Below, piece by piece: positions 20,381-63,598 of a stretch of DNA of 64,000 nt. The notes beneath the pieces were generated by a model. It had not been told where the DNA came from. It saw nothing but the letters and a program-made list of their open reading frames with translations, and did not search any database. The first letter of the stretch is position 1. Each line of letters starts with the position of its first letter. A program made the translations under genes and the position numbers. The stretch covers positions 1,120,001 through 1,184,000 of the forward strand of contig CAWCFX010000001.1 in assembly GCA_963795085.1 (NCBI GenBank). The letters are read 5' to 3'. The stretch is from an uncultured Gemmatimonadales bacterium (GTDB lineage Bacteria; Gemmatimonadota; Gemmatimonadetes; Gemmatimonadales; GWC2-71-9).

Positions 20381-20436
20381 GCAGCGTGGGGCGTGCAGCG
20401 TGCAGCGTGGGGCGTGCAGCGTGCAGCGTGCAGCGT
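20381..20436 (+). repeat. Heptamer tandem array, left arm (GCAGCGT/GGGGCGT x8)
   Basis: Units counted directly; begins 2 bp after the arcA stop. Confidence 0.95.
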
Positions 20437-20441
20437 GCCGT

Positions 20442-20855
20442 TCAGTCAGGGGGATGGCCAGGTTTGCGCTTCTGAGTCTTGAGATTTGCTATCCTCCGTT
20501 GCAACGATCGCTTGAGGGCGCTGACCAGTTCGGACGTTGACCGCCCGAGCTTCATGAGATGGTCGAACTCGCTTGCATCAATGAGTTGTGCATCGAACGC
20601 CACGTAGAGGTGGGATCGAACCTCGGCGGCGGATGCTTTTGCAATTCCCAGAAAGCGATGAAATTCTGCCGTGGTACTGCTCTCGAAACCTTCCGCAATG
20701 TTGGCCATGACCGAGGCAGCGGCCCGGTTCAACTGGCCCGCGAGAGCGTAGTCGCGACCGAGCAACGCAGAGCCAGGCACGCTGCGTAGGGCCTTCGTTA
20801 ATTCCCGGGCCCGTTGCCAGGCAAGCAGATCCTCAAACTGGGTGACTCCGGCCAT
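20442..20855 (-). CDS. Four-helix-bundle protein (23S rRNA IVS protein-like, TIGR02436 type)
   Basis: FEDLLAWQRA, QLNRAAASVMANIAEGF, FLGIAKASAAEVRSHL. Confidence 0.92.
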   Translation of the reverse strand: MAGVTQFEDLLAWQRARELTKALRSVPGSALLGRDYALAGQLNRAAASVMANIAEGFESSTTAEFHRFLGIAKASAAEVRSHLYVAFDAQLIDASEFDHLMKLGRSTSELVSALKRSLQRRIANLKTQKRKPGHPPD

Positions 20856-20958
20856 GGGTGATTGTACCGGGAACCGACCCGGGAACCATCATCGAAAAGC
20901 AGCCACACCCCACCAGGAAAACGCGTTGCCGCCTATGCCTATCCAGGTTCAACATCCC

Positions 20959-21007
20959 ACGCTGCACGCTGCCCCTTGCACGCCGCATGCCCCACGCTGC
21001 ACGCTGC
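20959..21007 (-). repeat. Heptamer tandem array, right arm (ACGCTGC x7, degenerate), inverted relative to the left arm
   Basis: ACGCTGC is the reverse complement of GCAGCGT. Confidence 0.9.
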
Positions 21008-21022
21008 ACGTCTGAACTCTAA

Positions 21023-21847
21023 ATGATCTCCGCCCACCCCGACCGCACCCTCGCCGACCGCGCGCTGGACCGGATGCTCCAGGGGCCCCAGTCCGCGCTG
21101 GACCTCGCCAGCCAGGTGCTGGGTCTCGCCCAGGCCTCGCCGGTCATCGCCGAGCGGCTGGCGATCGCCCTGCTGGGCGCGGATCCCCGGGTGCGCCAGC
21201 TCCCCGATGGCCGCTGGGCCGCGGTGTCCGCGGTGCGGGAGGTCCCGTCGCTCCGCGAATGCAGTTTTGCGGTCGTGGACGTGGAAACCACCGGCATGCG
21301 GTCGCGGATGGACGACCGGATCACCGAGATCGCGGTGGTCACCGTGAGCAACGGAGTGGTGCGGCTTGCCTTCGATTCGCTGATCAACCCCGGGCGCTAC
21401 ATCCCGCCCCGCATTACCGCGGTCACCGGCATTACCAACGACATGGTGGCCCGGGCGCCCCGGTTCGCGGAGGTGAGTGATGCGCTGCTCGGCGCGCTCT
21501 CCGGCCGGGTGTTCGTGGCCCACAATGCCCGCTTCGACTGGAACTTCGTGGACGCCGAGATGCGCCGGGCTCGGGACCTGGTGCTGACGGGACCGCGACT
21601 CTGCACCGTCCGGCTGGCCCGCCGGCTAGTGCTCGGGGTGCAGTCCTGCGGACTGGATTCCCTGACCCACTACTTTGGCTGGGAGAACCAGGCCCGGCAC
21701 CGGGCCGCCGGCGATGCGCTGGTGACCGCCCAACTGCTCAACCGGCTGATCCAGCTGGCGACCGAGCGGGGCGCCCACACCGTGGACGACCTGGTGTCCA
21801 TCAGCACGCTGCCCAAGCGCCGCTTCCGGGACCGCTGGGCCTCCTGA
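21023..21847 (+). CDS. DEDDh 3'-5' exonuclease (Pol III epsilon-like) with N-terminal extension
   Basis: VVDVETTG, AHNARFD, LCTVRLAR, HRAAGDA. Confidence 0.9.
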   Translation: MISAHPDRTLADRALDRMLQGPQSALDLASQVLGLAQASPVIAERLAIALLGADPRVRQLPDGRWAAVSAVREVPSLRECSFAVVDVETTGMRSRMDDRITEIAVVTVSNGVVRLAFDSLINPGRYIPPRITAVTGITNDMVARAPRFAEVSDALLGALSGRVFVAHNARFDWNFVDAEMRRARDLVLTGPRLCTVRLARRLVLGVQSCGLDSLTHYFGWENQARHRAAGDALVTAQLLNRLIQLATERGAHTVDDLVSISTLPKRRFRDRWAS

Positions 21848-21986
21848 CCCACTGTCCCACTGACCCACTGACCCACTGTCCCACTGTCCCACTGACCCAC
21901 GTCCCACTGACCCACTGACCCACTGTCCCACTGTCCCACTGACCCACTGACCCACTGTCCCACTGTCCCACTGACCCACTGACCCA
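21844..21986 (+). repeat. 8-bp tandem array CTG(A/T)CCCA x18
   Basis: Counted directly; one 7-nt unit at 21900. Followed by about 4 copies of (G/A)CCC(C/T)CTT at 21994-22024. Confidence 0.95.
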
Positions 21987-22033
21987 CTGACATACCCCTT
22001 GCCCCCTTACCCTCTTGCCCCCTTCTTAGCTCC

Positions 22034-22975
22034 ATGACCATCGCGCACTCATTCCATGTCGGCGGCCTTCGCTGTATCACCCTGGAGGCGGGCCGAATCC
22101 GGCTCGATGGCGGCGCCATGTTCGGCGTGGTACCCAAGCCTCTCTGGTCAAAGCGGATTCCCGCGGACGAACGGAACCGGATTCCCCTGGCCATGCGCTG
22201 CCTGCTGATCGAACATCCCGGCGGACTCGTCCTGGTGGACACCGGCCTGGGCAACAAGCAGGATGCCAAGTTCCAGGATATCTATGGCGTCGAGAACCGG
22301 GGATCGAGCGGCGCCACCCAACTGGAGGACGGCCTGCTCGACCTGGGGTATACGCCCGGTGAAGTGACCATGGTGATCAACACTCACCTTCACTTCGACC
22401 ACGCCGGGGGGAACACGGCGGACCGGCGCGCGGCCGGGCAGGGGGAGGAGACCGACCGCGCGGTCGCCGCCGTGGAACTTGCCTTCCCCAATGCGACGTA
22501 TGTCGTGCAGCGCCGGGAACTCGAGTTCGCCCGGATCAGGAACGAGCGGATCCGCGCCAGCTACCTGGCCCCCAATTTCGACCCGGTGGAAGCCGCCGGT
22601 CGCTGGAAACTGCTGGATGGAGACAGCGAGGTGCTGCCCGGTATCTCCGTCCGGCTGACGCCGGGTCACGTGCCGTTTCATCAATCGGTCGTCATCCAGG
22701 ACCAGGGCGAGACCGCGGTCTTTCTCGGCGACGTGATGCCGACCGCCGCCCACCTGCCGCTGCCGTGGATCATGGGGTACGACCTCGAACCGCTCCGCAC
22801 CCTTGAGAGCAAGCGCGGACTGGTCGCTGAAGCCGCTGATGGGAACTGGCGCTTTGTCTTCGAGCACGACCCTGTGGTGGCCTTCGGCCGGGTGGTCCGG
22901 GAAGGAAGGGACGTGGCGCTGGCCGATGTGGTGACGGCGCCACTGGGGAAGGTGCCGTCCGCGTCGGGGGTGTGA
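22034..22975 (+). CDS. MBL-fold metallo-hydrolase (YtnP-like)
   Basis: LDGGAMFGVVPK, THLHFDHAGG, PGH, GD, WIMGYD, FEHDP. Confidence 0.92.
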   Translation: MTIAHSFHVGGLRCITLEAGRIRLDGGAMFGVVPKPLWSKRIPADERNRIPLAMRCLLIEHPGGLVLVDTGLGNKQDAKFQDIYGVENRGSSGATQLEDGLLDLGYTPGEVTMVINTHLHFDHAGGNTADRRAAGQGEETDRAVAAVELAFPNATYVVQRRELEFARIRNERIRASYLAPNFDPVEAAGRWKLLDGDSEVLPGISVRLTPGHVPFHQSVVIQDQGETAVFLGDVMPTAAHLPLPWIMGYDLEPLRTLESKRGLVAEAADGNWRFVFEHDPVVAFGRVVREGRDVALADVVTAPLGKVPSASGV

Positions 22976-23165
22976 GGCCCCCACCCCCTGTGGGCACGAA
23001 TCATTCCTCACAGGCTCCGTCGCCTAAGGGCTGGCAGGCCTTCGGCTTGGCCATTCATGTGTCGATGAGGGACCTGGCCCTTCACTTAGATGAGTCGGCC
23101 GAGAGCGACGAGTTGTGCGCCGGGACCTCGGGTTACTCGTCTCTTAGTGCATCCAAGGAGTCCCC

Positions 23166-24479
23166 ATGCCTAGGCCGCGTTCGCGCCGAACCCTGACGTC
23201 GAAGACAACCGTTTTCTTTGCCGCCGTGGTCCTGGCGTGCTCAGGGGACGATCCCACTGAACCAGTCGATCCGCTCGATGTGCGGGTGTCTCCCAGTCAT
23301 GTCTTCGCCGGTGGAGAGGTCTTCCTGGTCGGTGACTGGTATCGAGCTTCCGGCAAGGCGTATTCGCTGAGCTTGGATACGGTCAGCCTGGCCGTGCGCC
23401 GGGTGAACGACTCCACGGTCGGCATCACGGTTCCGCCCGGTAAAAACGGCGTGGCGACGCTGGTTGAGCGGATCGGCGGCACGGATATCCAGCGGGCATC
23501 CCTGGAGGTGTACGGCCTCGCTCGCATCGCGACTATCCCGATGCCGGTCCAGGCGCAATTCACCCCATCCCAAAACCCTGCGGTTCCCTATGCGGTCACT
23601 GGGGACTCGGGTGGAGTGTCGGTCATTAGCCTTCGAACCGACCTGGTAAAACGCTACCCTGGAATCGGGCGTCTGGGCTACGAATTGGGAAGCTGTCACC
23701 GTATCGCCGGTCCCAGCTACGCGGATGGGGCGTTTCTGATCTGGGATTCGACTCCGTATCCGTCAATGAAAGCAACTCGATGGCAGTTAATCCCCGACAC
23801 CCTCCGGGGCCAAGCCTTGTTCCCCCCTGGCGCAACCTGCGGGATGGCAGAGGTCAGCCCGCAGGTCTTCATGCATACGGGAAGCCAGGGTGGTGCGGCG
23901 TTCGTCTCCCTCGATTCCATCGACGATGCCGGGAACCGGACCAATTTCTACAGTGATGTCGTCATCAGCAACAAGGGGTTCTTCTGGTCCGGGAGCAGAA
24001 TGGTGTTGCGGGGAACGAACAACGAGGGCGTGAGCGTCATTGATCTGCAGGCCCGAGCGCGTGCCTTTGTGGTTCCATGGATGAGGACGGTGCACTCGGC
24101 CGCCTTTTCCATCGATGGGACAGCGATCTACTTGTGTGGGTACGGTCCTCTCCCCTCCCTTCTGATCTCGGTTAGCGCCGCCACCGGAGATTCGCTTGCC
24201 GCGAAGCCAGGTTCGTGTCTGGCCTTGGCCATCGATCCGCAACTCGGGGTGCTCTACACCCTGGCAGGCGGAACCGATGGGACGTCCGTTCTGGTGCTGA
24301 ATCCGGTGACGCTGGGGGAAGTCGGGAGAATCAATCTCACCTCCATGGAATGCGTTAACTGCGAGGAAAGCGTGATCAGCGTGGATCGGGCGAACGGGGA
24401 ACTCGTAGTTCTCCATTACCTGCTCTCCCAGTCAGGGATCGGCCTCGCCCATGTACGGATTCCGCCCGAGTTCCCATAG
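23166..24479 (+). CDS. Hypothetical lipoprotein, probable Ig-like + beta-propeller
   Basis: Lipobox-like VLAC; beta-rich repeats; lower GC3 than neighbours. Confidence 0.65.
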   Translation: MPRPRSRRTLTSKTTVFFAAVVLACSGDDPTEPVDPLDVRVSPSHVFAGGEVFLVGDWYRASGKAYSLSLDTVSLAVRRVNDSTVGITVPPGKNGVATLVERIGGTDIQRASLEVYGLARIATIPMPVQAQFTPSQNPAVPYAVTGDSGGVSVISLRTDLVKRYPGIGRLGYELGSCHRIAGPSYADGAFLIWDSTPYPSMKATRWQLIPDTLRGQALFPPGATCGMAEVSPQVFMHTGSQGGAAFVSLDSIDDAGNRTNFYSDVVISNKGFFWSGSRMVLRGTNNEGVSVIDLQARARAFVVPWMRTVHSAAFSIDGTAIYLCGYGPLPSLLISVSAATGDSLAAKPGSCLALAIDPQLGVLYTLAGGTDGTSVLVLNPVTLGEVGRINLTSMECVNCEESVISVDRANGELVVLHYLLSQSGIGLAHVRIPPEFP

Positions 24480-24630
24480 CCGCCCTGAGCGGAGCTTCCT
24501 GGCAAGCCGTCAATCCCGCGACCTTCTACCCTTTCCCGCCGTTCCCCGTCGGGTAGCCAACCGCCGGGTTCTCCGGTATCTTCACCTACCCCCGTTCACG
24601 CAATAACAGGTCACTCAGTTCGGAGCACCC

Positions 24631-27600
24631 ATGCGACTCGCCCAGCGTCGCGGCCTCGCGTTTGCCGCTTCCCTCCTGTTGCTTAGTGCAACGTCTGCCA
24701 TTGCCCAGGTCCGGTCTCCCGAGGCCGCCAACTTGGCGCCCGTGTTCAGCCGGATGGGCCACGACACCGCAACCCTTCCGCTAAAACCCGCCCGCTGGGC
24801 CCGGTTTACCGCGACCAAGTCGACCTGGATGTCGGTGGACGTGAGTCCCGACGGCCAGATGCTGGTGTTTGACATGCTGGGAGACTTGTACACGATGCCC
24901 ATCACCGGCGGCCGGGCCACCCGGCTCACCCAGGGCATTGCCCATGACATGCAGCCGCGCTTCAGTCCCGATGGCAAGCGGGTGGTTTTCGTCTCGGACC
25001 GGAGCGGCGACGAGAACGTCTGGATCATGAGCGTGGACGGCCGGGACACCGTCTCGGTGACCCGGGGGGTGGCCAGCGCCTATCTCTCTCCTGATTGGAC
25101 CCCTGACGGGGAGTACATCGTCGTGTCCCGCCAGGCCCCCCTCGCGGGACTCGAAAAGATCTGGCTCTACAGTGTGCGGGGCGGCACCGGCCTGGAGATG
25201 GTCGCCGGTCCACCCGGTGCCCGCATGATGGGCCCCGCCTTCGGCAAGGACCCGCGCTACGTCTGGTACGCGGTCCGCTTCGGCGCCTGGCAGTACAACG
25301 CCGTCTTCCCCCAGTTCCAGCTCGAGGTGTACGACCGCGACAACGGCACCCGGACGACCATGAGTTCTCGTTACGGATCGGCCTTCCGCCCCGCTCTCTC
25401 GCCGGATGGTAAGTGGCTGGCCTACGGCACCCGGCACGACGCCGAGACCGGGCTCCGCATCCGGGACCTGGCGACCGGCGAGGAGCGCTGGCTGGCCCAC
25501 CCGATCCAGCGGGACGACCAGGAGTCCATCGCCAACATGGACGTGCTGCCCGGCTATTCCTTTACCCCCGACTCGCGCGCCGTGGTGATCTCCTACGGCG
25601 GGGAGCTCTGGCGGGTGCCGGTGGCGGGTGCAGCGGCCGAGAAGATCGCCTTCTCGGTCGAGGCCGAAGTCGCGGTGGGGCCGGAGCTCAAGTTCGAGTA
25701 TCCCATCGACGATTCACCCACCTTCACGGTCAAGCAGATCCGCGACGGAGTGCCCTCGCCGGACGGGCGGCGCGTGGTCTTCAGCGCGCTGGACCGGCTT
25801 TACGTGGTCGACCTCGCGGGCGGCGCACCACGCCGGCTCACCAACCAGGAGGTGGGCGAATACAACCCGGCCTGGTCTCCCGACGGCAGTGCGGTCGCCT
25901 ACGTGACCTGGGACGAGCGCGAGGGCCACGTCATGCGGGTCCGGGCGACGGGCACCGCGCCGTCGGTGCCCCGGCGCCTGACTCGCGCCTCCGCGTACTA
26001 TCAGCAGCTGGCCTGGTCGCCCACCGGCGGCCGGATCGTGGCCATGCGGGCGTCGCACCGGGACCTCCATGAATCCGTTGATCCGTTCATGGGGAACGGG
26101 CTCGGCGCCGAGTTTGTCTGGCTTCCCGCCGAGGGCGGCGATGCCACCGTGATCGGCCCCACGGAGGGACGCCAGCGGCCCCACTTCACCACCGATTCCA
26201 CCCGCATCTACACCTACGGCTTCGTGCCGCCGCCGACCGAGGGCGGGCCCGGTACGGTGGCCCTCGTCTCCACCCGGTGGGACAACACCGATCTCAAGAC
26301 CCACCTCCGGGTCACCTGGGAGATCCCCATCTTCTCGGGCGCCTGGGTGCCGGACCGCCACTCCGACATCATGCTCCCGCGGGACTACAGCCGGGAGCAG
26401 GAAGTGATTCCCCAGGCCTCAGCGGACCTGGTCATGATGGCGCCCCGGGGCGACCTGGCGCTGGCCCAGGTCAACAACGACATGTACGTGATCACGGTGC
26501 CCCGCACTGGCGGCGCGGTTCCCTCGGTGCGGGTCAGCAAGCCCGACAGCGCCGCCATGCCGGTGCGGAAGCTCTCGGATATCGGGGGTGAGTTCCCGGC
26601 CTGGGGCGCCGACGGGCGGACCGTGCACTGGGCCATCGGCAATGCCTTCATTACCTATCGCCTGGACCGGGCCGAAGCGGTGGACGACAGCCTCTACCAG
26701 GCCCACGCCGACTCGGCCGCCCGGATGCAGGCGGCCTATCGCCCCGAGGAAAAGCGGATCGCGATCAGTGCCGCCCGGGACATTCCGCAGGGCGTCGTGG
26801 TGCTGCGCGGCGCCCGGGTGATCAGCATGCGCAATCGCGAGGTGATCGAGAACGCGGACGTCGTCATTACCAACAACCGCATCACCTCGGTCGGCCCCCA
26901 GGCCGCGGTCCCGGCGGGGGCCCGCGTCATTGACGTGAACGGCAAAACCATCGTGCCCGGCTTCGTGGATACCCACGCCCACATGTGGAACCTTTGGGGG
27001 CTGCACTGGAGCCGGCCCTGGATCTACCTGGCCAACCTGGCTTACGGCGTCACCACGACCCGGGATCCCCAGACCGCGACGACCGACGTGCTGACCTACG
27101 CGGACCGGGTGGACGCCGGCCAGATGCCGGGGCCCCGCGTCTATTCCACCGGCCCCGGCGTGTTCTTCACCGAAGGTGTGCGCAACCTGGACCACGCCCG
27201 GGAGATTCTTCGCCGCTACAGCGACTATTACGACACCAAGACGTTCAAGATGTACATGTCGGGCAACCGCCGGCAGCGGCAGTGGCTGGTCATGGCGGCG
27301 CGGGACCTCAAGCTGATGCCCACGACCGAAGGTGGACTGGACTATCGCCTCAACATGACCCACGCCATGGATGGGTATCCCGGCATCGAGCACGCCATGC
27401 CGATCATCCCGGCCTACGACGACGTGGTAGAACTGTTCAAGACCTCGCAGACCACCAACAGCCCGACGCTGCTGGTCTCCTACGGCGCGCCCTGGGCGGA
27501 GAACTACTTCTACACCACCGAGAACGTGGTGGGAGACAAGAAGCTGGCGTGGTTTACGCCGGAGGCCGAGCTGGATGCCAAGATCCGGCGCCGCAACCCG

Positions 27601-28068
27601 GGTCCCGGCCCCGGCGGCTGGTTTCGCGAGGATGAGTATGCTTTCAAGAAGCACTCGGCCTGGCTGGCCCGGCTGGTGGAAGCCGGCGGCCGGACCGGGG
27701 TCGGCAGCCACGGGCAGTTGCAGGGCCTGGGCTATCACTGGGAGCTCTGGGCCCTGCAGAGCGGGGGAATGAGCAACCACGACGCGCTCCGCGCGGCCAC
27801 CCTGATGGGCGCCGAGGCGATCGGACTGGGCCGCGACCTCGGGTCCATCGAGGCCGGCAAGCTGGCGGACCTCCTGGTGCTCGACGCCAACCCGCTGGAG
27901 AACATCCGGAATTCCAATACCCTGCGCTACGTCATGAAGAACGGCCGGCTCTACGACGCCGGCACCATGGACGAGATCTGGCCCCGCCAGTTGCCGGCGC
28001 CGGACGAGTCGTGGCGGCATTCCCGGCCCGCCAATGTTTCGGCCGGCGTGGCGGGAGGTGCCCGATGA
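24631..28068 (+). CDS. Secreted PD40/TolB-like beta-propeller + amidohydrolase
   Basis: Signal peptide, many SPDG repeats, PGFVDTHAH, GSIEAGKLADL. Confidence 0.9.
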   Translation: MRLAQRRGLAFAASLLLLSATSAIAQVRSPEAANLAPVFSRMGHDTATLPLKPARWARFTATKSTWMSVDVSPDGQMLVFDMLGDLYTMPITGGRATRLTQGIAHDMQPRFSPDGKRVVFVSDRSGDENVWIMSVDGRDTVSVTRGVASAYLSPDWTPDGEYIVVSRQAPLAGLEKIWLYSVRGGTGLEMVAGPPGARMMGPAFGKDPRYVWYAVRFGAWQYNAVFPQFQLEVYDRDNGTRTTMSSRYGSAFRPALSPDGKWLAYGTRHDAETGLRIRDLATGEERWLAHPIQRDDQESIANMDVLPGYSFTPDSRAVVISYGGELWRVPVAGAAAEKIAFSVEAEVAVGPELKFEYPIDDSPTFTVKQIRDGVPSPDGRRVVFSALDRLYVVDLAGGAPRRLTNQEVGEYNPAWSPDGSAVAYVTWDEREGHVMRVRATGTAPSVPRRLTRASAYYQQLAWSPTGGRIVAMRASHRDLHESVDPFMGNGLGAEFVWLPAEGGDATVIGPTEGRQRPHFTTDSTRIYTYGFVPPPTEGGPGTVALVSTRWDNTDLKTHLRVTWEIPIFSGAWVPDRHSDIMLPRDYSREQEVIPQASADLVMMAPRGDLALAQVNNDMYVITVPRTGGAVPSVRVSKPDSAAMPVRKLSDIGGEFPAWGADGRTVHWAIGNAFITYRLDRAEAVDDSLYQAHADSAARMQAAYRPEEKRIAISAARDIPQGVVVLRGARVISMRNREVIENADVVITNNRITSVGPQAAVPAGARVIDVNGKTIVPGFVDTHAHMWNLWGLHWSRPWIYLANLAYGVTTTRDPQTATTDVLTYADRVDAGQMPGPRVYSTGPGVFFTEGVRNLDHAREILRRYSDYYDTKTFKMYMSGNRRQRQWLVMAARDLKLMPTTEGGLDYRLNMTHAMDGYPGIEHAMPIIPAYDDVVELFKTSQTTNSPTLLVSYGAPWAENYFYTTENVVGDKKLAWFTPEAELDAKIRRRNPGPGPGGWFREDEYAFKKHSAWLARLVEAGGRTGVGSHGQLQGLGYHWELWALQSGGMSNHDALRAATLMGAEAIGLGRDLGSIEAGKLADLLVLDANPLENIRNSNTLRYVMKNGRLYDAGTMDEIWPRQLPAPDESWRHSRPANVSAGVAGGAR

Positions 28069-33422: not shown

Positions 33423-33606
33423 GGCTTGTAAAGCGCCTCACCGGCCGGGTTTTGACGAATGAGTTCCCTGGCAAAACCAGAGCCGCCAAAGCCTGGACGC
33501 ACGGAACACTGCACAAAATGGCTCAGTTACTTTGTTCGTTTCGTGTTTTGTCGTTGGCTGTTGTGTAAGCGCAGGATTTCCAGCGGCAACCTGGGGCACC
33601 ACGACA

Positions 33607-34728
33607 ATGTCACATGATGAGATCCTTGCCCGTCTTGAAACGCGGCTCGGGGCGCTTGCCGCCCTGGGGCACGAGGCCCTCGAAGCCGAGCACGTCGCCA
33701 TCCTGGGCCGGAAGCAGGGCGAACTCAACAACCTGCTGAAGAGCCTGGCCACGCTGCCCGCCGAGGAACGCCGCAGTGTGGGGGCCGCGGCCAATCAGCT
33801 GCGGCAACGGTTCGAGGCGGCCTTCGAGGCCCGCCGCGCCGACCTCAAGCATCAGTCGGAGACGGGCCGCCAGTCCGGGCTCGATCTGAGCATGCCCGGG
33901 CGGGAGCGGTTCGTGGGCGCGGAACACCCGGTGACCCGGGTGGTGGACGAGATCGCCGAGATTTTCCGGGAACTGGGCTTCGTCAGGGTGGTGGGCCCGG
34001 AGGCGGAGACGGAGTGGTACAACTTCATCGCCCTCAACTTCCCGCCCGATCACCCGGCGATGGACCTCCATGACACGCTCTACCTGGACACCGGTGACCG
34101 GCGCGCCCCGGGGCGGGACCGGCGGAAGAACCGGTCGTCCGGGGTAGGACCGCACGAAAAGCGGGAAACCGACCGCCGCGAGCTGCAGGGCGGCAGGGTC
34201 CTGCTCCGCACCCATACCTCGCCGGTGCAGATTCGCACCATGCTGGCGCACCGGCCGCCCATCCGGGTGATCATGCCCGGAATGGTGTACCGCAAGGACA
34301 CCTTCGACGCCTCCCACGCCCCCGCCTTCAGCCAGATCGAAGGCCTGGCGGTGGACGACAACATCACCTTCGTGGACCTCAAGGCCACGCTGACCCACTT
34401 CGCCCGCCGTTTCTTCTCGGCGGCGACCCGGGTCCGTTTTCGCCCCTCGTTCTTTCCCTTCACGGAACCGTCGGCCGAGATGGATGTCAGTTGCGGGCTC
34501 TGCGACGGCGCCGGTTGCCCCGCCTGCAAGGGCTCCGGCTGGATGGAAATCCTGGGCTGCGGCATGGTCCACCCCAACGTGCTGGAGACCTGCGGCATCG
34601 ACCCCGAGGTGTACTCCGGCTGGGCCTTCGGCATGGGCCCCCACCGGATCGCGATGCAGCGTTACGGCATCCGGGATATTCGATTGCTGTATGAGGGCGA
34701 TATGAGGTTCCTGAGCCAGTTTCGGTAA
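33607..34728 (+). CDS. pheS: Phenylalanine--tRNA ligase alpha subunit
   Basis: LLRTHTSPVQ, FRPSFFPFTEPS, WMEILGCGMVHP, GWAFGMG, DIR..YEGDMRFL. Confidence 0.96.
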   Translation: MSHDEILARLETRLGALAALGHEALEAEHVAILGRKQGELNNLLKSLATLPAEERRSVGAAANQLRQRFEAAFEARRADLKHQSETGRQSGLDLSMPGRERFVGAEHPVTRVVDEIAEIFRELGFVRVVGPEAETEWYNFIALNFPPDHPAMDLHDTLYLDTGDRRAPGRDRRKNRSSGVGPHEKRETDRRELQGGRVLLRTHTSPVQIRTMLAHRPPIRVIMPGMVYRKDTFDASHAPAFSQIEGLAVDDNITFVDLKATLTHFARRFFSAATRVRFRPSFFPFTEPSAEMDVSCGLCDGAGCPACKGSGWMEILGCGMVHPNVLETCGIDPEVYSGWAFGMGPHRIAMQRYGIRDIRLLYEGDMRFLSQFR

Positions 34729-34776
34729 GCTGTGCAAGGCTAGTGGCGTAGTAGAGGTGAGAGCAACAACTGCGTC

Positions 34777-34929
34777 AACGCAGAGGGCACTGAGAGCAGC
34801 GGAGTTCGCGGAGAGATCGTCTATCCTCCGGATTCCAATGATCATGCTTTTGTACAAAGCATCTGAGTCGAGATCTCAACCCGCATGTTGATCTCTGCGC
34901 ATTCTGCGGCTCTCCCTGTCCTCTGCGTT
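34777..34929. mobile_element. Gene-less inverted-arm element between pheS and pheT
   Basis: Arms 34777-34818 and 34890-34929 are imperfect reverse complements and resemble the arms around the GxxExxY gene. Confidence 0.65.
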
Positions 34930-34986
34930 AATGCTTTTGTTGAGGTTAAAATCTGTACGCAGGTTTGCCTAATAACACGGAGCTAG

Positions 34987-54627: not shown

Positions 54628-54678
54628 CCATGGGCCGCCCGGGATGAGCCATTGAGCACAGGCAATGGCTCATCGGGC

Positions 54679-55395: not shown

Positions 55396-55526
55396 GGAAT
55401 CCGTCCGATAGAAGTTCCTTCAATAGTTGCCGGGCCCGGCCGGGCATGGCAAGGGAGGCGGGCCGGCTTGCCACGGCCGCCGATATCGCGCACGTTTGTC
55501 GCTTCACCTTGAGCAACGAGACCCCC

Positions 55527-56333: not shown

Positions 56334-56351
56334 CCGGCGGGGACGCCGCCG

Positions 56352-56828
56352 CTATTCCTCCAGGATCGCGAAGGTCGTGCTGTTGCCGCTGACGAAGTGC
56401 AGGGTGCGGCTCCCCAGCTTGATGCGGATGGTGTTGGCAAGCTGGGTATCCGGGGTCGTGATGGTGAGGGCCATCAGCATGTTCTGCCCGGGAAACTGCG
56501 GCAGCCCGTTGGGGAGCTGCCAGTTCTGCCAGTCCAGCGAGTACTCCCCCCGGTCAAACCGAAATCCATCCGGCAGGTCGTCCACCAGCTCGGCCGGCAC
56601 CACGCCGGCCCCCACCTCCGCCGGCCAGGTCTGGAACTCGGTGTGAAAGGCGTAGCTGCCCAGCTTGATGGCGTGGTAGTCGGCCGCCGCCTTTCCCGCG
56701 ATCGCCTGCCGCTTCAGCTCGTGGTAGCGGGGGTAGGCGATTTTCACGAGCAGGCCGACGATGATCATCACCATCAGGATCTCGATGAACGTGTATCCGG
56801 CCCGGGCACCTCGGCGGGGCGCCTTCAT
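56352..56828 (-). CDS. Type IV pilin / pseudopilin-like protein
   Basis: Prepilin cleavage motif AG|YTFIEILMVMIIVGLL. Confidence 0.85.
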   Translation of the reverse strand: MKAPRRGARAGYTFIEILMVMIIVGLLVKIAYPRYHELKRQAIAGKAAADYHAIKLGSYAFHTEFQTWPAEVGAGVVPAELVDDLPDGFRFDRGEYSLDWQNWQLPNGLPQFPGQNMLMALTITTPDTQLANTIRIKLGSRTLHFVSGNSTTFAILEE

Positions 56829-57322
56829 GGTGCCGGCCGCAGGACGGCGACGCTGGAGCCGAGGAAGGCGTGGGGCGAGTCGGTCGAGGCGTAGCGGATG
56901 GCGGTGTCCGTGGTGGAACGGAGGGAGTACACGTTGCCGTCCAGGACATCGTACCTGATGGCGGGGAGCGGCGCGCCCGCCTCCGCGAGGGTGGCGGGCA
57001 GCCGTCCCCGGGTCCGGCGGAACTGTTCCAGCTGCTGGGCCTGCAGGTAAATCGTAAGGCGGATGCTGGCCTCCTGCTCCGCCGGGCTGGGCCCCGGGGC
57101 AAGCCGCGGCGAGAGCCAGGCGGGGGAACTGAACGCGAGGTAGAGCATGAGCAGGGTGATCACGCCCAGGCTCACCGGCCGGACCAGGCGCTGGCGGCGG
57201 AGCGCGTCCGCCTGCTCGCCGCTCAACCGCGCCTGTTCGGTCCGCCGGGTGTGCTCGTACTCCTCGATCAGCTTGTTCCGTTCAGCTTCGCTGGACGGTT
57301 CCGGAGTTGAAGGGCCTGCCAT
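56825..57322 (-). CDS. Hypothetical membrane protein, GspG-like C-terminus
   Basis: Single TM; LEQFRRTRGRLPATLAE. Confidence 0.6.
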   Translation of the reverse strand: MAGPSTPEPSSEAERNKLIEEYEHTRRTEQARLSGEQADALRRQRLVRPVSLGVITLLMLYLAFSSPAWLSPRLAPGPSPAEQEASIRLTIYLQAQQLEQFRRTRGRLPATLAEAGAPLPAIRYDVLDGNVYSLRSTTDTAIRYASTDSPHAFLGSSVAVLRPAP

Positions 57323-57382
57323 GGGCTGCCTGGAAATGGAAGTGTCGGCAATATAAGCGTCGAGGGGGCGGTTGGCCCACGG

Positions 57383-57763
57383 TCACCCGTCGGTAACCTG
57401 CTGTCCATCGAGCGCGCGCTGGACCTGGAGCGGGAAGTTGCGAATGTCCAGGGGCTTGGTGATGTACCCGTCGAAGCCGGCACGCAGCGCCCGTTCCCGG
57501 TCGCCCGACATCGCGTGGGCGGTGAGCGCCACCACCCGGAGGCCGCGGTGCGCCGAGCCGCGGATTTCCCCCAGCAGGGTGAAACCGTCCTTGTCCGGCA
57601 ACTGGATGTCCATCAGCACCAGGTCGGGCGGGGCGGCATCGAGGGTGCCCAGCAGGCCTTCGCCACTGGGGAGTCCGGTGACCTGGTGTCCCTGGAGGGT
57701 CAGCAGGGTCCGGCAGAGTTTCATGTTGTCCGGGCTATCTTCAACGACCAGGATATGAGCCAC
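57383..57763 (-). CDS. Single-domain response regulator (DivK-like)
   Basis: ILVVEDS, LMDIQLP, ALTAHAM, YITKP. Confidence 0.92.
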   Translation of the reverse strand: MAHILVVEDSPDNMKLCRTLLTLQGHQVTGLPSGEGLLGTLDAAPPDLVLMDIQLPDKDGFTLLGEIRGSAHRGLRVVALTAHAMSGDRERALRAGFDGYITKPLDIRNFPLQVQRALDGQQVTDG

Positions 57764-57783
57764 GCATCACCGGGTGAATGTTG

Positions 57784-57812
57784 TTGGCGGGGTAGCAGCC
57801 TATAGGTACAAT
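57784..57812 (+). promoter_or_regulatory. Putative sigma70 promoter for aroA-cmk
   Basis: TTGGCG-N17-TACAAT. Confidence 0.5.
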
Positions 57813-57854
57813 TCACCCACTGGGTTCGCAACTGCTTCGGGGGTCTCGTCGCCT

Positions 57855-59129
57855 ATGAAAGTGGCCGGGTGGGTCCGGGTTCCCGGGGATAAGAGCATCA
57901 CCCACCGGGCGCTCCTGCTGGCGGCCATGGCCCCGGGGCGGAGTTATCTCGGCTCACCCCTGACTTCGGCGGATGCCCGCAGTACGGCGCGGGTGCTCCG
58001 GCAGCTCGGCGCCCGCATCTCTCCCCTCGCGCCCGGCCGGACGGTGCAGGTGGCCGGCCGCGGCCGGCTGGGGCGCCCGGACCGGGTCCTCCACTGCGGC
58101 AACTCCGGCACCACCGCCCGGCTGGTCCTCGGTCTCCTCGCGGCCCACCGCTTCAGGGCCACCCTCACCGGCGATGCCTCGCTCCGCCGCCGCCCCATGC
58201 GGCGCGTCACCCTCCCCCTCGCCACCATGGGCGCCCGCTTCACGCCGGCAGAACCGGCAGGGCTGCCGCTCGAGGTGCGGGGCGGGACGCTCCAGCCGCT
58301 GCACTATGAAATGCCGGTCTCCAGTGCCCAGATCAAGAGCGCTCTCCTGCTCGCCGGCTATGCCGGACAGGTCGGGGTGACCGTGAAGGAGCCGGGAGGG
58401 CGCTCCCGCGACCACACCGAAGTGATGTTCCGGGGACTCGGCCTGTCCCTGGCGGAGCGGGACGGATGGATCGAGTACCGTCCCGGGCCCCCCATCGCGG
58501 CCTTCGCGATGCAGATTCCCGGCGATATCTCCTCGGCGGCGTTTCTCGTGGGGGCCGCGTTGCTCGCCGAGGGCGGCGAGGTGGGAATCCACCAGGTGGG
58601 GGTCAATCCGACCCGCACCGGTTTTCTCTCCGTGCTGTCCCGGATGGGGGCCGACATCGATATCCGCGAAACCGGGCTGGAGTCGGGAGAGCCAGTGGGC
58701 GAGCTCGTGGCCCGTGCCGGTGTCACCCGGGGCACCGAGGTGGGGCCCGGGGAAATTCCCGGAATCATCGACGAGATTCCCATGCTCGCGGTGGTGGCGA
58801 CCCGGGTGTCCGGGGTCACCCGGTTCAGGGAAGCCGGCGAACTCCGGGTGAAGGAGAGCGACCGGCTCGGCCTGCTCGCCGCCAACATCCGGGCGGTCGG
58901 CGGCCACGCGGCGGTCGAAGGCAACGACCTGGTCATCGAAGGCTCGGACCGCCCGCCCAGGGGGCGGGTGACCACGGAGGGAGATCACCGGCTGGCCATG
59001 GCGTTTGCCGTACTGGGAACCGTGTCCGGCGCGACGGTGAAGGTCGACGACATGGACTGCGCCGGCGTGAGCTTTCCCGGGTTCCGCGAGTCGCTCCGGT
59101 CGATCCGGGTGAAGGGCGCCCGTGGCTAG
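57855..59129 (+). CDS. aroA: EPSP synthase
   Basis: PGDKSITHR, CGNSGTTAR, SAQIKS, RDHTE, RVKESDR, GDHRLAM. Confidence 0.96.
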   Translation: MKVAGWVRVPGDKSITHRALLLAAMAPGRSYLGSPLTSADARSTARVLRQLGARISPLAPGRTVQVAGRGRLGRPDRVLHCGNSGTTARLVLGLLAAHRFRATLTGDASLRRRPMRRVTLPLATMGARFTPAEPAGLPLEVRGGTLQPLHYEMPVSSAQIKSALLLAGYAGQVGVTVKEPGGRSRDHTEVMFRGLGLSLAERDGWIEYRPGPPIAAFAMQIPGDISSAAFLVGAALLAEGGEVGIHQVGVNPTRTGFLSVLSRMGADIDIRETGLESGEPVGELVARAGVTRGTEVGPGEIPGIIDEIPMLAVVATRVSGVTRFREAGELRVKESDRLGLLAANIRAVGGHAAVEGNDLVIEGSDRPPRGRVTTEGDHRLAMAFAVLGTVSGATVKVDDMDCAGVSFPGFRESLRSIRVKGARG

Positions 59130-59832
59130 CCGAGTAATCGCGATCGACGGCCCCGCGGCGAGCGGCAAGTCGAGCACTGCCCGCGCCGTGGCGACCGCGC
59201 TGGGGTTCGCGCACCTCGATTCCGGCGCCCTCTATCGCGGGGTGACCCTGGTGGCCCTGCGGGAATCCGGCCGGGCCGGCGCGGCCGGTGCCACTCCACT
59301 CGATGCCCTCGAGCCCGACGTCATCCTGCGTCATGCGGAGGACCGGGGCCTCAAGCTGCTGCCCGACGGGCCGGGGTTCGCCACCTACCTGGAGGGCGAG
59401 CCGGTGGACGATGCCATCCGCGCCCAGGATGTCACCGCCCAGGTGTCCGCGGTGTCGGCGGTACCGGTGATCCGGGAATGGGTGAACAGCTACCTCCGGT
59501 CCATCGTACGGGCGGGGAGCGACGTCGTGATCGACGGCCGCGATATCGGCACCGTGGTCTTTCCCGATGCCGATCTCAAGATCTTCCTGACCGCCTCGGC
59601 GGAGGCGCGAGCCGGCCGCCGGATCTCCCAGCGGGGCCGGGCCGTGGATGCCGAGCGCCTGAAGCGGGAAACCGAAGCGCTGGCCGCGCGGGACCATGCC
59701 GACTCCACCCGGGAGGTGGCGCCGCTGCGGCAGGCGCCCGACGCCATCGAAGTGGACACTACGGCGCTGACGTTCGCCCAGCAGGTGGAGGGCATCGTCA
59801 CCCTGGCGCGGGAACTCTTCGCCGCCCAGTAG
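59122..59832 (+). CDS. cmk: Cytidylate kinase
   Basis: IDGPAASGKS, DSGALYR, DGRDIGTVVFP. Confidence 0.96.
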   Translation: MASRVIAIDGPAASGKSSTARAVATALGFAHLDSGALYRGVTLVALRESGRAGAAGATPLDALEPDVILRHAEDRGLKLLPDGPGFATYLEGEPVDDAIRAQDVTAQVSAVSAVPVIREWVNSYLRSIVRAGSDVVIDGRDIGTVVFPDADLKIFLTASAEARAGRRISQRGRAVDAERLKRETEALAARDHADSTREVAPLRQAPDAIEVDTTALTFAQQVEGIVTLARELFAAQ

Positions 59833-59871
59833 GCCGCCGGCCGCCAGGCCGGCGCGAAAAAGGGGACAACC

Positions 59872-60888
59872 ATGGCGGAATCCGCGCGGGTCTCGCGGGG
59901 TGGCCGGTGGGGCCGCTGGCTCCTCGTGGCGGCGGCCGCGCTGGTCGGTTCCACGCTTGTGAGCTCGCTGCTGCTGCTCCGCTGTGCCCCGGAGCCACCG
60001 GCGGCTCCGGCCCAGCCTGTCCCGGCTGCACCGGCCGACACCGCCGGGATGGTCCGGACCGAGATGCGCAACGTGGACTACCACGTGGACGCGGATATCG
60101 TCCTCCGGATTCAGTATCTCCGCGGGCACCTGGTCCCGGTGCGAGCCGGGGAAGTGCCGGTGTTCGAGAACGGTGAATCCTACCGGCTGCGCATCGAAAC
60201 GGCGGAGATCTTCGTGGATACCCTGGATCTCAGCCGGCTGATCAATCGGCGGGTATTCGGCTACCGGGGAGCGCCCATCCGGGACCTGGCCCTCTCGGTG
60301 GACGGCGAGGAACTGGTCCAGCGCGGCAAGCTCGGCAACGTGCCCTTCGTCATCCGGTCCCGGGTGTCGCTGGCGGCCGACGGCGAAGTCCGGCTCCATC
60401 CCGTGGACGTCAAGGTCCTGGGGATCCACGCCGACGGCCTCATGCGCCGGCTGGGCCTCGAACTGGATGAGATGCTCAAGGTGCAACCGGACCGGGGGAT
60501 GCGGATCGAGGGGAACGATTTCCTCCTGGATGTCACCGCCATCCTTCCGCCGCCCCGCGTCCTGGGCCGGCTGGCCGCGGTGAGCCTCGAGCCCGGCGGC
60601 ATGCGGCAGCGGTTCGGACCCCGCGACAGCCTGCCGCCGCGCCCGGTCTTCGGCGACACCATCCCGGCGGCCAATTACCTGGCCTATCGCGGGGGCAGCA
60701 TTCGCTTCGGCAAGCTGACCATGCGGGGCACCGACCTCCTCATCGTGGACGCGGACCCGCGCGACCGTCTCGATTTTTACCTGGCCCGGTACCACGAGCA
60801 GCTGGTGGCCGGCACCCATCGGACCACCCCGGAGGACGGCCTGGTGGTCTGGATGCCGGACCAGAACGACCTCGGCAAAGCGCCCTGA
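59872..60888 (+). CDS. Hypothetical membrane-anchored protein
   Basis: N-terminal TM, beta-rich body, high GC3. Confidence 0.7.
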   Translation: MAESARVSRGGRWGRWLLVAAAALVGSTLVSSLLLLRCAPEPPAAPAQPVPAAPADTAGMVRTEMRNVDYHVDADIVLRIQYLRGHLVPVRAGEVPVFENGESYRLRIETAEIFVDTLDLSRLINRRVFGYRGAPIRDLALSVDGEELVQRGKLGNVPFVIRSRVSLAADGEVRLHPVDVKVLGIHADGLMRRLGLELDEMLKVQPDRGMRIEGNDFLLDVTAILPPPRVLGRLAAVSLEPGGMRQRFGPRDSLPPRPVFGDTIPAANYLAYRGGSIRFGKLTMRGTDLLIVDADPRDRLDFYLARYHEQLVAGTHRTTPEDGLVVWMPDQNDLGKAP

Positions 60889-61054
60889 AAGACGGCGGGT
60901 TTACCGCCCCGGACCAAGAGAAATGGGTGGGTTCGCCGCGGGCGGCTCCGGCCGGGAGCGGTGCCCACAAGGGAGAAGTGCCAGCCAGGGTGGGCTGCAC
61001 AGTGTGCGCCGGGGATGGCCTGGTCGCCTAATTTCGGGTAGCAGTGCCCCGGGG

Positions 61055-61083
61055 TTGTCTATTTGGGGCCCAATTTCTATGTT
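61055..61083 (+). promoter_or_regulatory. Putative sigma70 promoter for rpsA
   Basis: TTGTCT-N17-TATGTT. Confidence 0.55.
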
Positions 61084-61196
61084 CTAAGGCTCTCTCCGGT
61101 CCTTTGGGCCGGCTGAGACGGGCTGCCGCATTCCGCGCCGGTCCTACCCCAACCCGCAGAGTGGCCTGCTGCGGCTATCGAGGAAACCCAATCCGC

Positions 61197-62933
61197 ATGC
61201 CCGAACTGTACACCGCCGAACACCCCTATAGCTCGCCCACCGGCCTTCGCGTCCGGCAGGACCTGATCGACGAAGACTACACCTCCGAAGACTACGAGAA
61301 GATGCTCCCCCTCTACGAACAGACCATGGCGTCTATCGTGGAAGGCGAGATCGTCAAGTCCAAGGTCCTCCGGGTGACCGACAACGCCGTCATCCTGGAC
61401 GTGGGCTTCAAGTCCGAAGGCTCGGTGCCGCTGGACGAGTTCAAAGACCCCCAGTCGCTCAAAGAGGGCGACGAGGTCGAGGTCTTCCTCGAGCATCTCG
61501 AGGACAGCGAGGGCGCGGTCGTCCTGTCCAAGAAGAAGGCCGACTTCATGCGGGTCTGGGAGAAGATCCGCCAGGCCCACGAAAGCGACCAGCCGGTCGA
61601 GGGCACCCTGGTCAAGAAGATCAAGGGCGGGGTGGTGGTCAACCTGATGGGCGTGGATGCTTTCCTCCCCGGCAGCCAGATCGCGCTCCGCCGGGTGCCC
61701 AACATCGACGAGCTGCTGGGCAGCACCTACGAGTTCAAGATCATCAAGCTCAACAAGCGCCGGCGGAACATCGTGGTCAGCCGCCGGGTGATCCTCGAGA
61801 ACGAGCGGGCCCACAAGCGGGAGCACCTGATGAAGGAGCTCCAGGTGACCCAGGTCCGGAAGGGCGTGGTCAAGAACATCACCGACTTCGGCGCCTTCAT
61901 CGACCTGGGCGGCGTGGACGGCCTGCTCCACATCACCGACATGTCCTACGGCCGGGTGTCCCACCCGTCCGAGGTGGTGTCCATCGGCAAGGAAGTCGAG
62001 GTCAAGATCCTGGACATCGACTGGCAGCGGGAGCGCATCAGCCTGGGCATGAAGCAGCTGATGGCCTATCCGTGGAAGGACGTGGCCAGCAAGTATCCGG
62101 TCGGCACCCGGGTGCAGGGCAAGGTCGTCTCGATCACCAATTACGGCGCCTTCGTGGAGCTGGAGCCGGGCATCGAAGGCCTGGTCCACATCTCCGAGAT
62201 GAGCTGGACCCGCAACGTCCGCCACCCGTCCAAGGTGGTCAGCATCGGCGAGACCATCGAAGCGGTCGTGCTCAAGGTGGACGAGAACGAAGAGAAGATC
62301 TCGCTGGGCATGAAGCAGACCGAGCAGGACCCCTGGGTCGTGCTGCCGCTCAAGTACCCGGTCGGCACCATGATCACCGGCAAGGTCCGCAATCTCACCA
62401 GCTTCGGCGCCTTCGTCGAGATCGAGCCGGGCATCGACGGCCTGATCCACATCTCCGACATGTCCTGGACCAAGCGGATCCAGCACCCGTCGGAGGCGGT
62501 CAAGAAGGGCGATACCGTCAACGTCGTCATCCTCAACATCGACGCCGACAACAAGCGGATCTCCCTCGGCCTCAAGCAGGCGGAGGAAGACCCCTGGCTC
62601 AAGATCGGCGAGACCTACCCGGTCGGCACCGAGATGCGGGGCACCGTGACCCGCCTGATGGACAAGGGGGTGGTGGTGGACCTGGGCAACGACATCGAGG
62701 GCTTCGTCCCCATGTCCCAGCTGGGCGTGCCGGATATCGAGAACCCGGGCGATGCCGCCCGCGAAGGCCAGCTGGTCGACCTCAAGGTCCTCGAGGTGGA
62801 CCCGATCCATCACCGGATCGTGCTGGCCGTGGTGAGCTTCCCGGAGGACTCCGAGGAGAACATCCAGGCCCGCGCCGCCGCCATCCGGGCTGCGCAGGTC
62901 ATCATCCCGGACGATGAAGCTCCGATGGAGTAG
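61197..62933 (+). CDS. rpsA: 30S ribosomal protein S1
   Basis: Repeated S1 domains (FGAFIDLGGVDGLLHITDM, RISLGMKQ); downstream of cmk. Confidence 0.97.
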   Translation: MPELYTAEHPYSSPTGLRVRQDLIDEDYTSEDYEKMLPLYEQTMASIVEGEIVKSKVLRVTDNAVILDVGFKSEGSVPLDEFKDPQSLKEGDEVEVFLEHLEDSEGAVVLSKKKADFMRVWEKIRQAHESDQPVEGTLVKKIKGGVVVNLMGVDAFLPGSQIALRRVPNIDELLGSTYEFKIIKLNKRRRNIVVSRRVILENERAHKREHLMKELQVTQVRKGVVKNITDFGAFIDLGGVDGLLHITDMSYGRVSHPSEVVSIGKEVEVKILDIDWQRERISLGMKQLMAYPWKDVASKYPVGTRVQGKVVSITNYGAFVELEPGIEGLVHISEMSWTRNVRHPSKVVSIGETIEAVVLKVDENEEKISLGMKQTEQDPWVVLPLKYPVGTMITGKVRNLTSFGAFVEIEPGIDGLIHISDMSWTKRIQHPSEAVKKGDTVNVVILNIDADNKRISLGLKQAEEDPWLKIGETYPVGTEMRGTVTRLMDKGVVVDLGNDIEGFVPMSQLGVPDIENPGDAAREGQLVDLKVLEVDPIHHRIVLAVVSFPEDSEENIQARAAAIRAAQVIIPDDEAPME

Positions 62934-62956
62934 GTTGGCGGGATCAGGCAGGGATT

Positions 62957-62986
62957 TCAGGGCCCCGATGAGGGGCCCTGATTGTT
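62957..62986 (+). terminator. Hairpin after rpsA
   Basis: TCAGGGCCCC-GATGA-GGGGCCCTGA followed by TTGTT. Confidence 0.65.
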
Positions 62987-62992
62987 AACCGC

Positions 62993-63598
62993 AACTGCCT
63001 CACCGCAGAGGCGCCAAGTGCGCCAGGGAGCGCGAAGAAATCCGAGGCTCAAAAGCCGTTTGCCAATCTCTTGATGCCGTTCTTGAGCAATGTCTCATTA
63101 AAGTTCAACAGGAGACCAATGGGTAGGCCGGTAAGCTTGAGATACGTCAGGACCTGGGAATCGTGAATGGGGGCAAGTTTGTCGACTGACTTCACCTCTA
63201 CCAGTAATGAATTCTGCACGACCAGATCGGTACGAAGTGTCGTCTGAAGGTCATGTCCTTTGTATTTGAGCGGAGTGTGAACCTGCCTTTCCGCTTCAGT
63301 ATCTCGTAACCTGAGCTCCAGAATCAGGCACTCTTCGTACACCGACTCCATCAATCCCGGGCCCATGATCCGATGGACCAATCGCTGCTCCAATGACAGT
63401 CCCGGAAACAGCGTTTACGGCATCCTGCTCCTCAATGGTCCGCATAATGTGCCTTCCTGTTGAGTCAGGGCAAGCACAGGGTTACTGTCGCATGGACCAT
63501 CATCGTTTTTACCCCGGTCGGATCCAAAAACCGCACCCACATCCACAGATGTTCTCTGCGCTCCTTCGCGTCCTTTGCGCCTTTGCGGTGGCGCAGTT
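62993..63598. mobile_element. Inverted-arm cassette carrying a GxxExxY gene
   Basis: Arms 62993-63042 and 63548-63598 are imperfect reverse complements with ~9-bp internal periodicity. Confidence 0.7.
63049..63445 (-). pseudogene. GxxExxY protein (PD-(D/E)XK-like), frameshifted
   Basis: MRTIEEQDAVNAVSGTVIGAAI, then a 2-nt deficit at ~63379, then VHRIMGPGLMESVYEECL...DLVV...VEVK...QVLTYLK..GLLLNF. Confidence 0.85.

Follow-up and report, generated by a model that had tools for sequence, protein, structure and literature searches.

A stretch of 64,000 nucleotides from an uncultured Gemmatimonadales bacterium (assembly GCA_963795085.1, contig CAWCFX010000001.1, positions 1,120,001 to 1,184,000 of the forward strand; called the window below) raises the question of why small genes lie between inverted arrays of short tandem words at junctions of protein-coding genes. 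One such gene separates an arcA-like gene from an RNase T-family exonuclease gene (exo). The 643-nt spacer consists of a 7-mer array, a minus-strand open reading frame (ORF) of 137 aa and the inverse array. The ORF encodes a four-helix-bundle (4HB) protein of the family named after the intervening sequences (IVSs) of 23S rRNA, and a second insert in the window carries an unrelated gene of the GxxExxY family. We found that genes of both families are enriched for such arms, and that related genomes have filled, empty and stump versions of the same junctions. We consider it moderately probable that these are selfish, IVS-like cassettes, which form hairpin loops and spread horizontally between protein-coding genes.

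Anatomy of the cassette between arcA and exo

In window coordinates, the locus has the following features:

19147-20379, plus strand: arcA-like gene (PF02274)
20381-20438: arm 1, a 7-mer array with unit GCAGCGT, 8.3 copies, G-rich on the plus strand (TRF)
20442-20855, minus strand: 4HB gene, 137 aa, 23S rRNA-IVS protein family (PF05635, TIGR02436)
20856-20957, minus strand: non-coding leader of about 100 nt, from the upstream arm to the start codon (cassettes are compared in gene sense)
20958-21010: arm 2, the inverse 7-mer array, 7.6 copies (TRF)
21023-21847, plus strand: exo, RNase T-family exonuclease gene (PF00929)

Arm 1 begins 1 nt past the arcA stop codon, and arm 2 stops 12 nt ahead of the exo start codon. 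The two arms share 53 nt that are 83% complementary and separated by 520 nt, and the enclosed gene scores 92.2 bits against PF05635 (cut-off 33.8) and 89.5 bits against TIGR02436 (cut-off 24). This bears out the initial annotation, which had read a four-helix-bundle gene between inverted 7-mer arrays. The closest solved structure is that of XCC0516 (2gsc, E 2.4e-8). Each of the genome's four 4HB cassettes with long arms has a leader of about 100 nt. The initial annotation had also proposed that the arms pair into a long stem, and the predicted fold of the 651-nt cassette RNA agrees: the arms are paired in both the minimum free energy and the centroid structure, with a z of -5.1 against 20 shuffles.

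A scan of positions 20300-22100 for consensus promoters and terminators found none, including no sigma-70 consensus site. The only Rfam match anywhere in the window was one tRNA, and the arms had none. The 4HB protein had no match in PADLOC and none in PHROGs, and viral contigs contained one relative of it, which gives no support for phages as carriers.

Both cargo genes of the window are antisense to their neighbours and low in GC, as the initial annotation had stated. Their GC is 0.52-0.64 in 300-nt windows compared with about 0.67 for the genome, and at third codon positions it is 0.65 and 0.63, where the median is 0.85 (gene calls in this genome are our own and crude).

Inverted arms are enriched around 4HB and GxxExxY genes

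The second cassette lies downstream of a gene that we call rpsA, a label taken over unchecked from the initial annotation. Its features are:

62993-63039: arm downstream of the GxxExxY gene (gene sense), 47 nt
63049-63445, minus strand: GxxExxY / PD-(D/E)XK-like gene, frameshifted near codon 20 (PF13366, TIGR04256)
63552-63598: second arm, purine-rich in gene sense, with the outer end AACTGC

The ORF at 63049-63393 (114 aa, minus strand) matches PF13366 with 126.8 bits and TIGR04256 with 129.7 bits, above the cut-off. The frame is split: residues 5-19 of a paralog align to the other frame (63296-63445), and residues 21-125 align to the ORF. The gene retains a D...EVK stretch, which we take to be the catalytic motif. 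Its arms are 47 nt long, 79% complementary and separated by 512 nt. The inverted arms and the gene family thus stand as first annotated, while the gene itself proved to be frameshifted. The claimed period of about 9 nt is weak but real (lag-9 match 0.37 vs 0.28 in shuffled sequence, z 4.4, over eight arms of the family), and TRF assigned period 8 on one arm. PADLOC gave only weak Cas4/RT-associated PD-(D/E)XK matches (E 4e-5 to 4e-4).

To measure the association between genes and arms, a gene was scored as armed when the best ungapped inverted-repeat score around it was at least 15. None of 300 random 310-nt places in the genome reached this score (maximum 14), and the two cassettes of the window scored 32 and 17. 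Four of the six 4HB genes of the genome scored 24-40; the fifth has short 7-mer arms by eye, and the sixth, a weak high-GC match, is armless. All four of its GxxExxY genes have imperfect purine-rich arms by eye, of which only the window copy passes the score.

The same architecture recurs well beyond this genome. Among 4HB loci of 20 related genomes (28 of 83 matches, plus locus L026), 23 of 29 were armed. The closest homologues of the window 4HB in other phyla were armed at 45 of 69 loci; this set came from 80 loci obtained with a single-protein query, 11 of which were removed for flanks shorter than 300 nt. For GxxExxY the count was 13/23 (25 of 30 loci taken, five partial matches omitted, two dropped for short flanks). 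The enrichment of arms around both families, which the initial annotation had expected, is therefore observed in all three sets against 0/300 at random. A mismatched-flank control in the other phyla gave 7/69 at a score of at least 15, and this control is contaminated because many loci have the same heptamer. The distance between arms clusters at about 400-600 nt. Across 21 genomes, copy number varies from 0 to 13 for 4HB and from 0 to 15 for GxxExxY.

Antisense placement holds for both window genes and is not a general rule. Between co-directional genes we counted four antisense and three sense cargo genes in this genome, and 14 vs 4 in the relatives, on crude gene calls.

Filled, empty and stump junctions in relatives

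We compared three junctions among relatives, and found filled and empty alleles, as the initial annotation had anticipated, together with stump alleles. The uniform presence in all relatives that would have spoken against its proposal was not seen. Synteny of arcA and exo was kept in 13 of 19 relatives' loci. The gap between the two genes is 0-22 nt in 10 of these 13 and 113 nt in one. In congener G004 the junction carries a 657-nt insert whose 4HB protein is 51% identical to that of the window, compared with 79-84% for the flanking genes. In the same comparison the window measures 646 nt. The 312 nt of congener G003 hold no gene and have 45-nt arms that are quite different.

Of 19 relatives, 16 have 5-37 nt between pheS and pheT, and one has 86 nt that include arrays. 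The spacer of two congeners measures 226-239 nt and contains degenerate arms without a gene. In this genus, pheS itself (33532-34728) has about 30 extra residues (query ~164-194), which split its matches in the other genera searched.

On the rpsA side, three of four congeners have a GxxExxY gene (45-48% identical), and rpsA is 95% identical in all four. The 148-nt spacer of congener G002 contains no gene, and we interpret what is left there as the outer stump of each arm; the alignment is good for the right stump, and the left one was placed by eye and is poorly aligned by MAFFT. The GxxExxY gene was not found at any of the other genera's loci, where this spot is occupied by a plain terminator-like hairpin or by gene-less periodic hairpins.

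One filled/empty pair is clean. A cassette common to genomes G014 and G020 (L061/L065) is absent in their congener G016, where the flanks abut (2 nt vs 519 nt). For another cassette (L046/L047), the orthologous site in G016 is masked by N. Four soil-metagenome runs yielded short low-depth pieces only and no joints, and have no bearing on the alleles.

Arm words follow protein clades

To relate arm words to cargo proteins, we built a 4HB tree of 62 rows (five own, 29 from relatives, and 28 selected among the 80 loci of other phyla so as to cover many taxa); it is a quick tree with few columns and many unresolved forks. Branch support is given by the Shimodaira-Hasegawa-like approximate likelihood ratio test (SH-aLRT). 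One clade (SH-aLRT 97) unites proteins whose genes have GGCGGTA-type arms. They are 57-69% identical against an overall median of 32%, and they occupy non-homologous loci in four genomes: this one, G003, G004 (twice) and G007. The window 4HB belongs to another clade (SH-aLRT 99), which spans at least 12 phyla by record titles and has mostly GAGTGCT-like heptamer arms, to which the window arm word GCGTGCA is close. The 4HB protein pairs of highest identity have the same arm words. Arm words thus follow protein clades.

The arms also change in concert. Two orthologous sites of G014 and G020 encode proteins of 63-64% identity and differ in their arm words (GGGTGTA vs TAGGGGC, and ACGCACAG vs GGCACAGG), and the arms remain complementary inside each genome despite the changed words. 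Since complementarity is kept while the word drifts, pairing, in RNA or in single-stranded DNA, is the conserved property. Selection for arm pairing, or templated homogenisation, is well supported.

The link between clade and word also fits a partnership like that between REP-associated tyrosine transposases (RAYT; REP, repetitive extragenic palindrome) and their REPIN hairpins. Each 4HB ring would recognise its own word and seed or maintain arrays of it, so that the cassette would be the master and the roughly 400 arrays of the genome its offspring. Five 4HB cassettes of this genome are armed, each with a different word family, and these are five of its six abundant families (60, 72, 55, 13 and 24 arrays); by our own arithmetic, the chance of five random draws all differing is about 0.05. 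Of the 60 8-mer arrays, 37 have words of the sixth family (AAGGGGGC) no more than 70 nt away. In addition, Xanthomonas S23p is described in passages of PMC4990558 as a toroidal homopentamer, a shape that could read tandem words.

We nevertheless consider such a partnership doubtful, though conceivable. No dose relation was found: G019, with eight 4HB genes, and G020, with four, have 0 large arrays per 100 kb vs 9 here, in a comparison of eight relatives at 87-100 kb each from arbitrary positions. The arm word changed at the orthologous sites of G014 and G020 while the proteins stayed 63-64% identical. Kin share labels, so the co-variation of word and protein may be common descent, and the 4HB has no catalytic fold and no known binding or enzymatic activity. 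Direct membership of the REP/RAYT group was also considered for the cassettes and rejected, since the cargo is not a Y1 (IS200-like) transposase and its profile matches are limited to PF05635 or PF13366.

Gene-less hairpins and solitary arrays

Two further features of the window contain arrays and no cargo:

34764-34814 and 34892-34942: arms of a gene-less hairpin between pheS and pheT, loop 77 nt
21844-22024: solo array after exo, the 8-mer CTGACCCA/CTGTCCCA in 18.6 copies (21844-21991), then CCCCTTGC in 3.8 copies (TRF)

The arms between pheS and pheT (51 nt, 76% complementary, no gene enclosed) are of the same family as the rpsA-side GxxExxY arms, with 13 invariant columns across eight aligned arms; this kinship had been proposed in the initial annotation. 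A hidden Markov model of the family found just nine arms at five loci, mostly its training set. The lone 8-mer array at 21844 was likewise recovered. Its composite make-up is that of the right arm of an 8-mer-armed 4HB cassette at C6:720769, and it is missing in two congeners, where the gap between exo and mbl is 0 and 8 nt.

Such arrays are common in the genome (3.89 Mb in six contigs, GC 0.67, 93% complete). With a minimum length of 28 nt and periods between 5 and 30, we counted 408 arrays, or about one in every 10 kb; 285 of them sort into seven word families. Only 45 of the 406 classifiable arrays fall within called genes. The arrays are thus mostly intergenic, and they have the 5-11-nt units that define long simple sequence repeats (LSSRs). 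LSSRs in bacteria were reportedly treated by Mrazek in 2007, and the short tandemly repeated repetitive (STRR) sequences of cyanobacteria are comparable short-word tandem arrays. Inverted array pairs within 3 kb number 48; 26 of them are back-to-back hairpins (gap at most 120 nt) without cargo, and about 289 arrays are solitary and intergenic. In all 26 hairpins the G-rich arm is 5', on either strand. The same polarity was seen in armed cassettes, in 17/23 of those in relatives and 37/45 of those in other phyla.

Hairpins of this kind might instead serve the host as terminators, mRNA end protectors or insulators that arose from slippage-prone repeats, with the small genes as passengers. The cargo-free hairpins and the solitary arrays would fit this explanation, and so would the periodic hairpins or plain terminator found at the rpsA-side spot in other genera. 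A Xanthomonas genome has 70-75 convergent heptamer pairs, and most of the repeats are transcribed, according to Rehm et al. 2015 (PMC4692102). Solitary arrays, however, are divided almost evenly between the strands with respect to transcription (93 vs 95, on crude gene calls). Host service also leaves unexplained why, across many phyla, two gene families with no relation to each other have arms whose words follow the clade, and why tight, probably coupled junctions such as that of arcA and exo are split. We therefore regard it as unlikely.

Several other repeat structures were seen in this genome. At C1:270550-271199 (L195) and C1:1307314-1307696 (L196), arms of two GxxExxY-type families occur without a gene, nested and duplicated in tandem. 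They have CACGGAG-type outer arms and AACTGC...CGCAGAGG-type inner arms, as if one element had entered the loop of another. The fifth 4HB gene (C1:181411-181665) matches its profile from position 21 and has its gene start in another frame, so that the N-terminal frame is apparently lost. A 40-nt REP-like palindromic unit (AGTCATTGCGAGG...GCAATCTG) forms clusters of alternating orientation at C1:849320-850411, C4:22363-25104, C4:754392-755183 and C1:5807-6077; a related unit builds the gene-less arms between arcA and exo in congener G003. A palindrome of about 1.3 kb (C3:387492-388801), with arms 76-100% complementary in segments of 36 to 169 nt, apparently runs across coding-like sequence. At the start of the window, a Y1 (IS200/RAYT-like) transposase fragment (PF01797, 56 bits) adjoins a 50-nt tandem repeat of 2.7 copies (130-369 and 494-635), and Y1_Tnp genes are present elsewhere in the genome.

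RNase III and reverse transcriptase

In rRNA, IVSs with the same ORF family and complementary borders replace the tetraloop of a helix, and that of Coxiella 23S rRNA is excised by RNase III, as reported in passages of PMC4990558. By location, the present cassettes are not 23S rRNA IVSs: one separates arcA from exo, the other follows rpsA, and neither is in an rRNA gene. The initial annotation had raised the possibility of mRNA intervening sequences. If they were true ones, RNase III would cut the stem and release the cassette RNA as in 23S rRNA. The ORF family and the stem-loop design are those of rRNA IVSs, including the excised one of Coxiella (in the same passages of PMC4990558), and the stem here would be about 48-53 bp.

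RNase III, however, was not found in this genome with PF14622, PF00636 or TIGR02191, and tblastn of same-phylum RNase III ORFs against the genome gave a best E-value of 0.8. PF14622 also matched none of 20 relatives of the order and none of 45 other genomes of the class, compared with 14 of 15 genomes from other classes of the phylum. It looks as if the whole class had lost a nearly universal enzyme. No insert interrupts the 23S rRNA of the genome itself (2958 nt vs 2925 model positions). Since RNase III is undetectable in the genome and the class, IVS-type excision is unlikely in this host, and we hold the mRNA version of it to be very improbable.

The initial annotation had further likened the 4HB protein to Avd of diversity-generating retroelements (DGRs). 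The family membership stands, and a search for RVT_1 reverse transcriptase gave 0 matches in the genome (93% complete), so the cassettes are not a DGR. A DGR with Avd, or chance neighbourhood in a repeat-rich genome, can draw on the frequency of arrays (about one per 10 kb) and on the 4HB being the Avd family (PMC10053308), and is practically negligible given the 0/300 random control, the occurrence of the repeat-armed design in genomes with few arrays, and the lack of an RVT_1 match.

A proposed model of horizontally spreading hairpin-loop cassettes

The explanation we favour, that of selfish IVS-like cassettes spreading between protein-coding genes, would work as follows. The unit is one small gene with its leader of about 100 nt (420-600 nt in total) in the loop of a long stem. 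Its cargo codes for a ring protein of the 4HB family or for a protein with the nuclease fold of GxxExxY, and its stem arms are the inverted short-word arrays. It would insert at tight gene junctions or in place of an intergenic hairpin, with the protein and the arm word moving jointly. Pairing of the arms would loop the insert out and return the flanking genes to adjacency. Decay of the gene would then leave gene-less hairpins, arm stumps and solo arrays; we propose this step because frameshifted cargo and nested gene-less arms are seen. The remnants, or copies of remnants, may have multiplied to the roughly 400 arrays of this genome. Observed are the anatomy, the enrichment of arms, the presence or absence of cassettes among relatives, the tie of arm word to protein clade and the concerted change of the arms. 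Mobility as a unit, which we regard as well supported, insertion at the tips of hairpins and what the stem does are inferred.

Several findings weigh against this explanation. The cassettes have inverted ends, and at the sole clean filled/empty pair, that of G016, no clear target-site duplication was seen. Genes for a transposase, an integrase or a reverse transcriptase were not found inside or beside the cassettes, and the failure to find RNase III and RVT_1 in the genome belongs here too. Recent within-genome copies are lacking, the window 4HB being 23-34% identical to the three own paralogs aligned. An approximately unbiased (AU) test did not reject the window 4HB and the syntenic G004 copy as sisters (p 0.805); vertical descent with fast divergence is thus not rejected at the junction of arcA and exo, and replacement by transfer is not established there. 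At a share of loci no arms were found, namely 6/29 for the relatives' 4HB genes, 24/69 for those of other phyla and 10/23 for GxxExxY, and inverted arrays also border ordinary genes such as adk and lexA. Finally, G-U compatible mismatches between arms number 87 on the cargo-sense strand vs 117 on the antisense strand; given so weak a bias, RNA-level selection is not established.

Relation to known systems

The closest likeness is to the 23S rRNA IVSs of Coxiella, Leptospira and Brucella. As described in passages of PMC4990558, these have a 4HB/S23p ORF of about 120-140 aa in an insert of about 430-650 nt with complementary ends that form a long stem, and they are sporadic and horizontally transferred, their ORF decays, and the insert replaces a hairpin tip. 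The cassettes described here differ in that they lie between protein-coding genes, have arms of tandem 7-17-nt words, include a second, unrelated cargo (GxxExxY), have gene-less derivatives across the genome, and occur in a host class with no detectable RNase III.

REP/REPIN sequences and their RAYT genes are similar in combining a single-copy gene flanked by an inverted repeat with dispersed gene-less intergenic copies of that repeat, one repeat family per gene copy. Here, in contrast, the cargo is something other than a Y1 transposase, tandem words take the place of single palindromes, and no activity on the repeats is known. MITEs (miniature inverted-repeat transposable elements) and integron cassettes with their attC sites are likewise small inserts, non-autonomous and bounded by inverted ends, or have folded single-strand sites and a single-gene cargo poor in promoters. 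Unlike these, the present cassettes have no known transposase or integrase partner, show no target duplication and have tandem-word arms on both sides of the gene. DGR Avd belongs to the same four-helix-bundle family (PF05635-like); here there is neither a reverse transcriptase nor a template/variable repeat pair.

The heptamer arrays and LSSRs treated in PMC4692102 and PMC4679880 resemble the arms in being intergenic 7-9-nt tandem words, often in convergent pairs, with a patchy phylogenetic spread and without a known function, as far as the accessible text of these papers goes. That text contains no S23 or helix-bundle terms, the phrase 'intervening sequence' is absent from the accessible part of PMC4679880, and the arrays are not linked there to 4HB or GxxExxY genes. 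Our literature searches, with subscription journals outside their coverage, found no paper that ties either gene family to repeat arms. The repeat-armed hairpin cassette has a wide distribution and hardly any published description.

Implications

A broader proposal may be put forward tentatively, and we think it more apt to fail than to hold. The short-word arrays of many phyla (LSSRs, STRRs and GGGAATC repeats) would be the offspring of such cassettes. A toroidal 4HB would read its own word on a single-stranded arm, GxxExxY would cut its own arms, and the proteins would copy, insert or maintain hairpins, in a symbiosis of gene and repeat that parallels RAYT/REPIN with a new chemistry.

To our knowledge, PF05635 and PF13366 are very large families without an assigned function. 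The loop of a word-repeat hairpin gives both of them one structural context, and with it a role that can be tested. In practical terms, the arms yield spurious repeat-peptide ORFs and break short-read assemblies. The cassettes extend the idea of the rRNA 'intervening sequence' to ordinary operons, and the apparent lack of RNase III throughout the class suggests that the enzyme to which the tolerance of rRNA IVSs is ascribed is not required for this design to persist. They also offer a possible origin for the long-known, unexplained short-word arrays of bacterial genomes.

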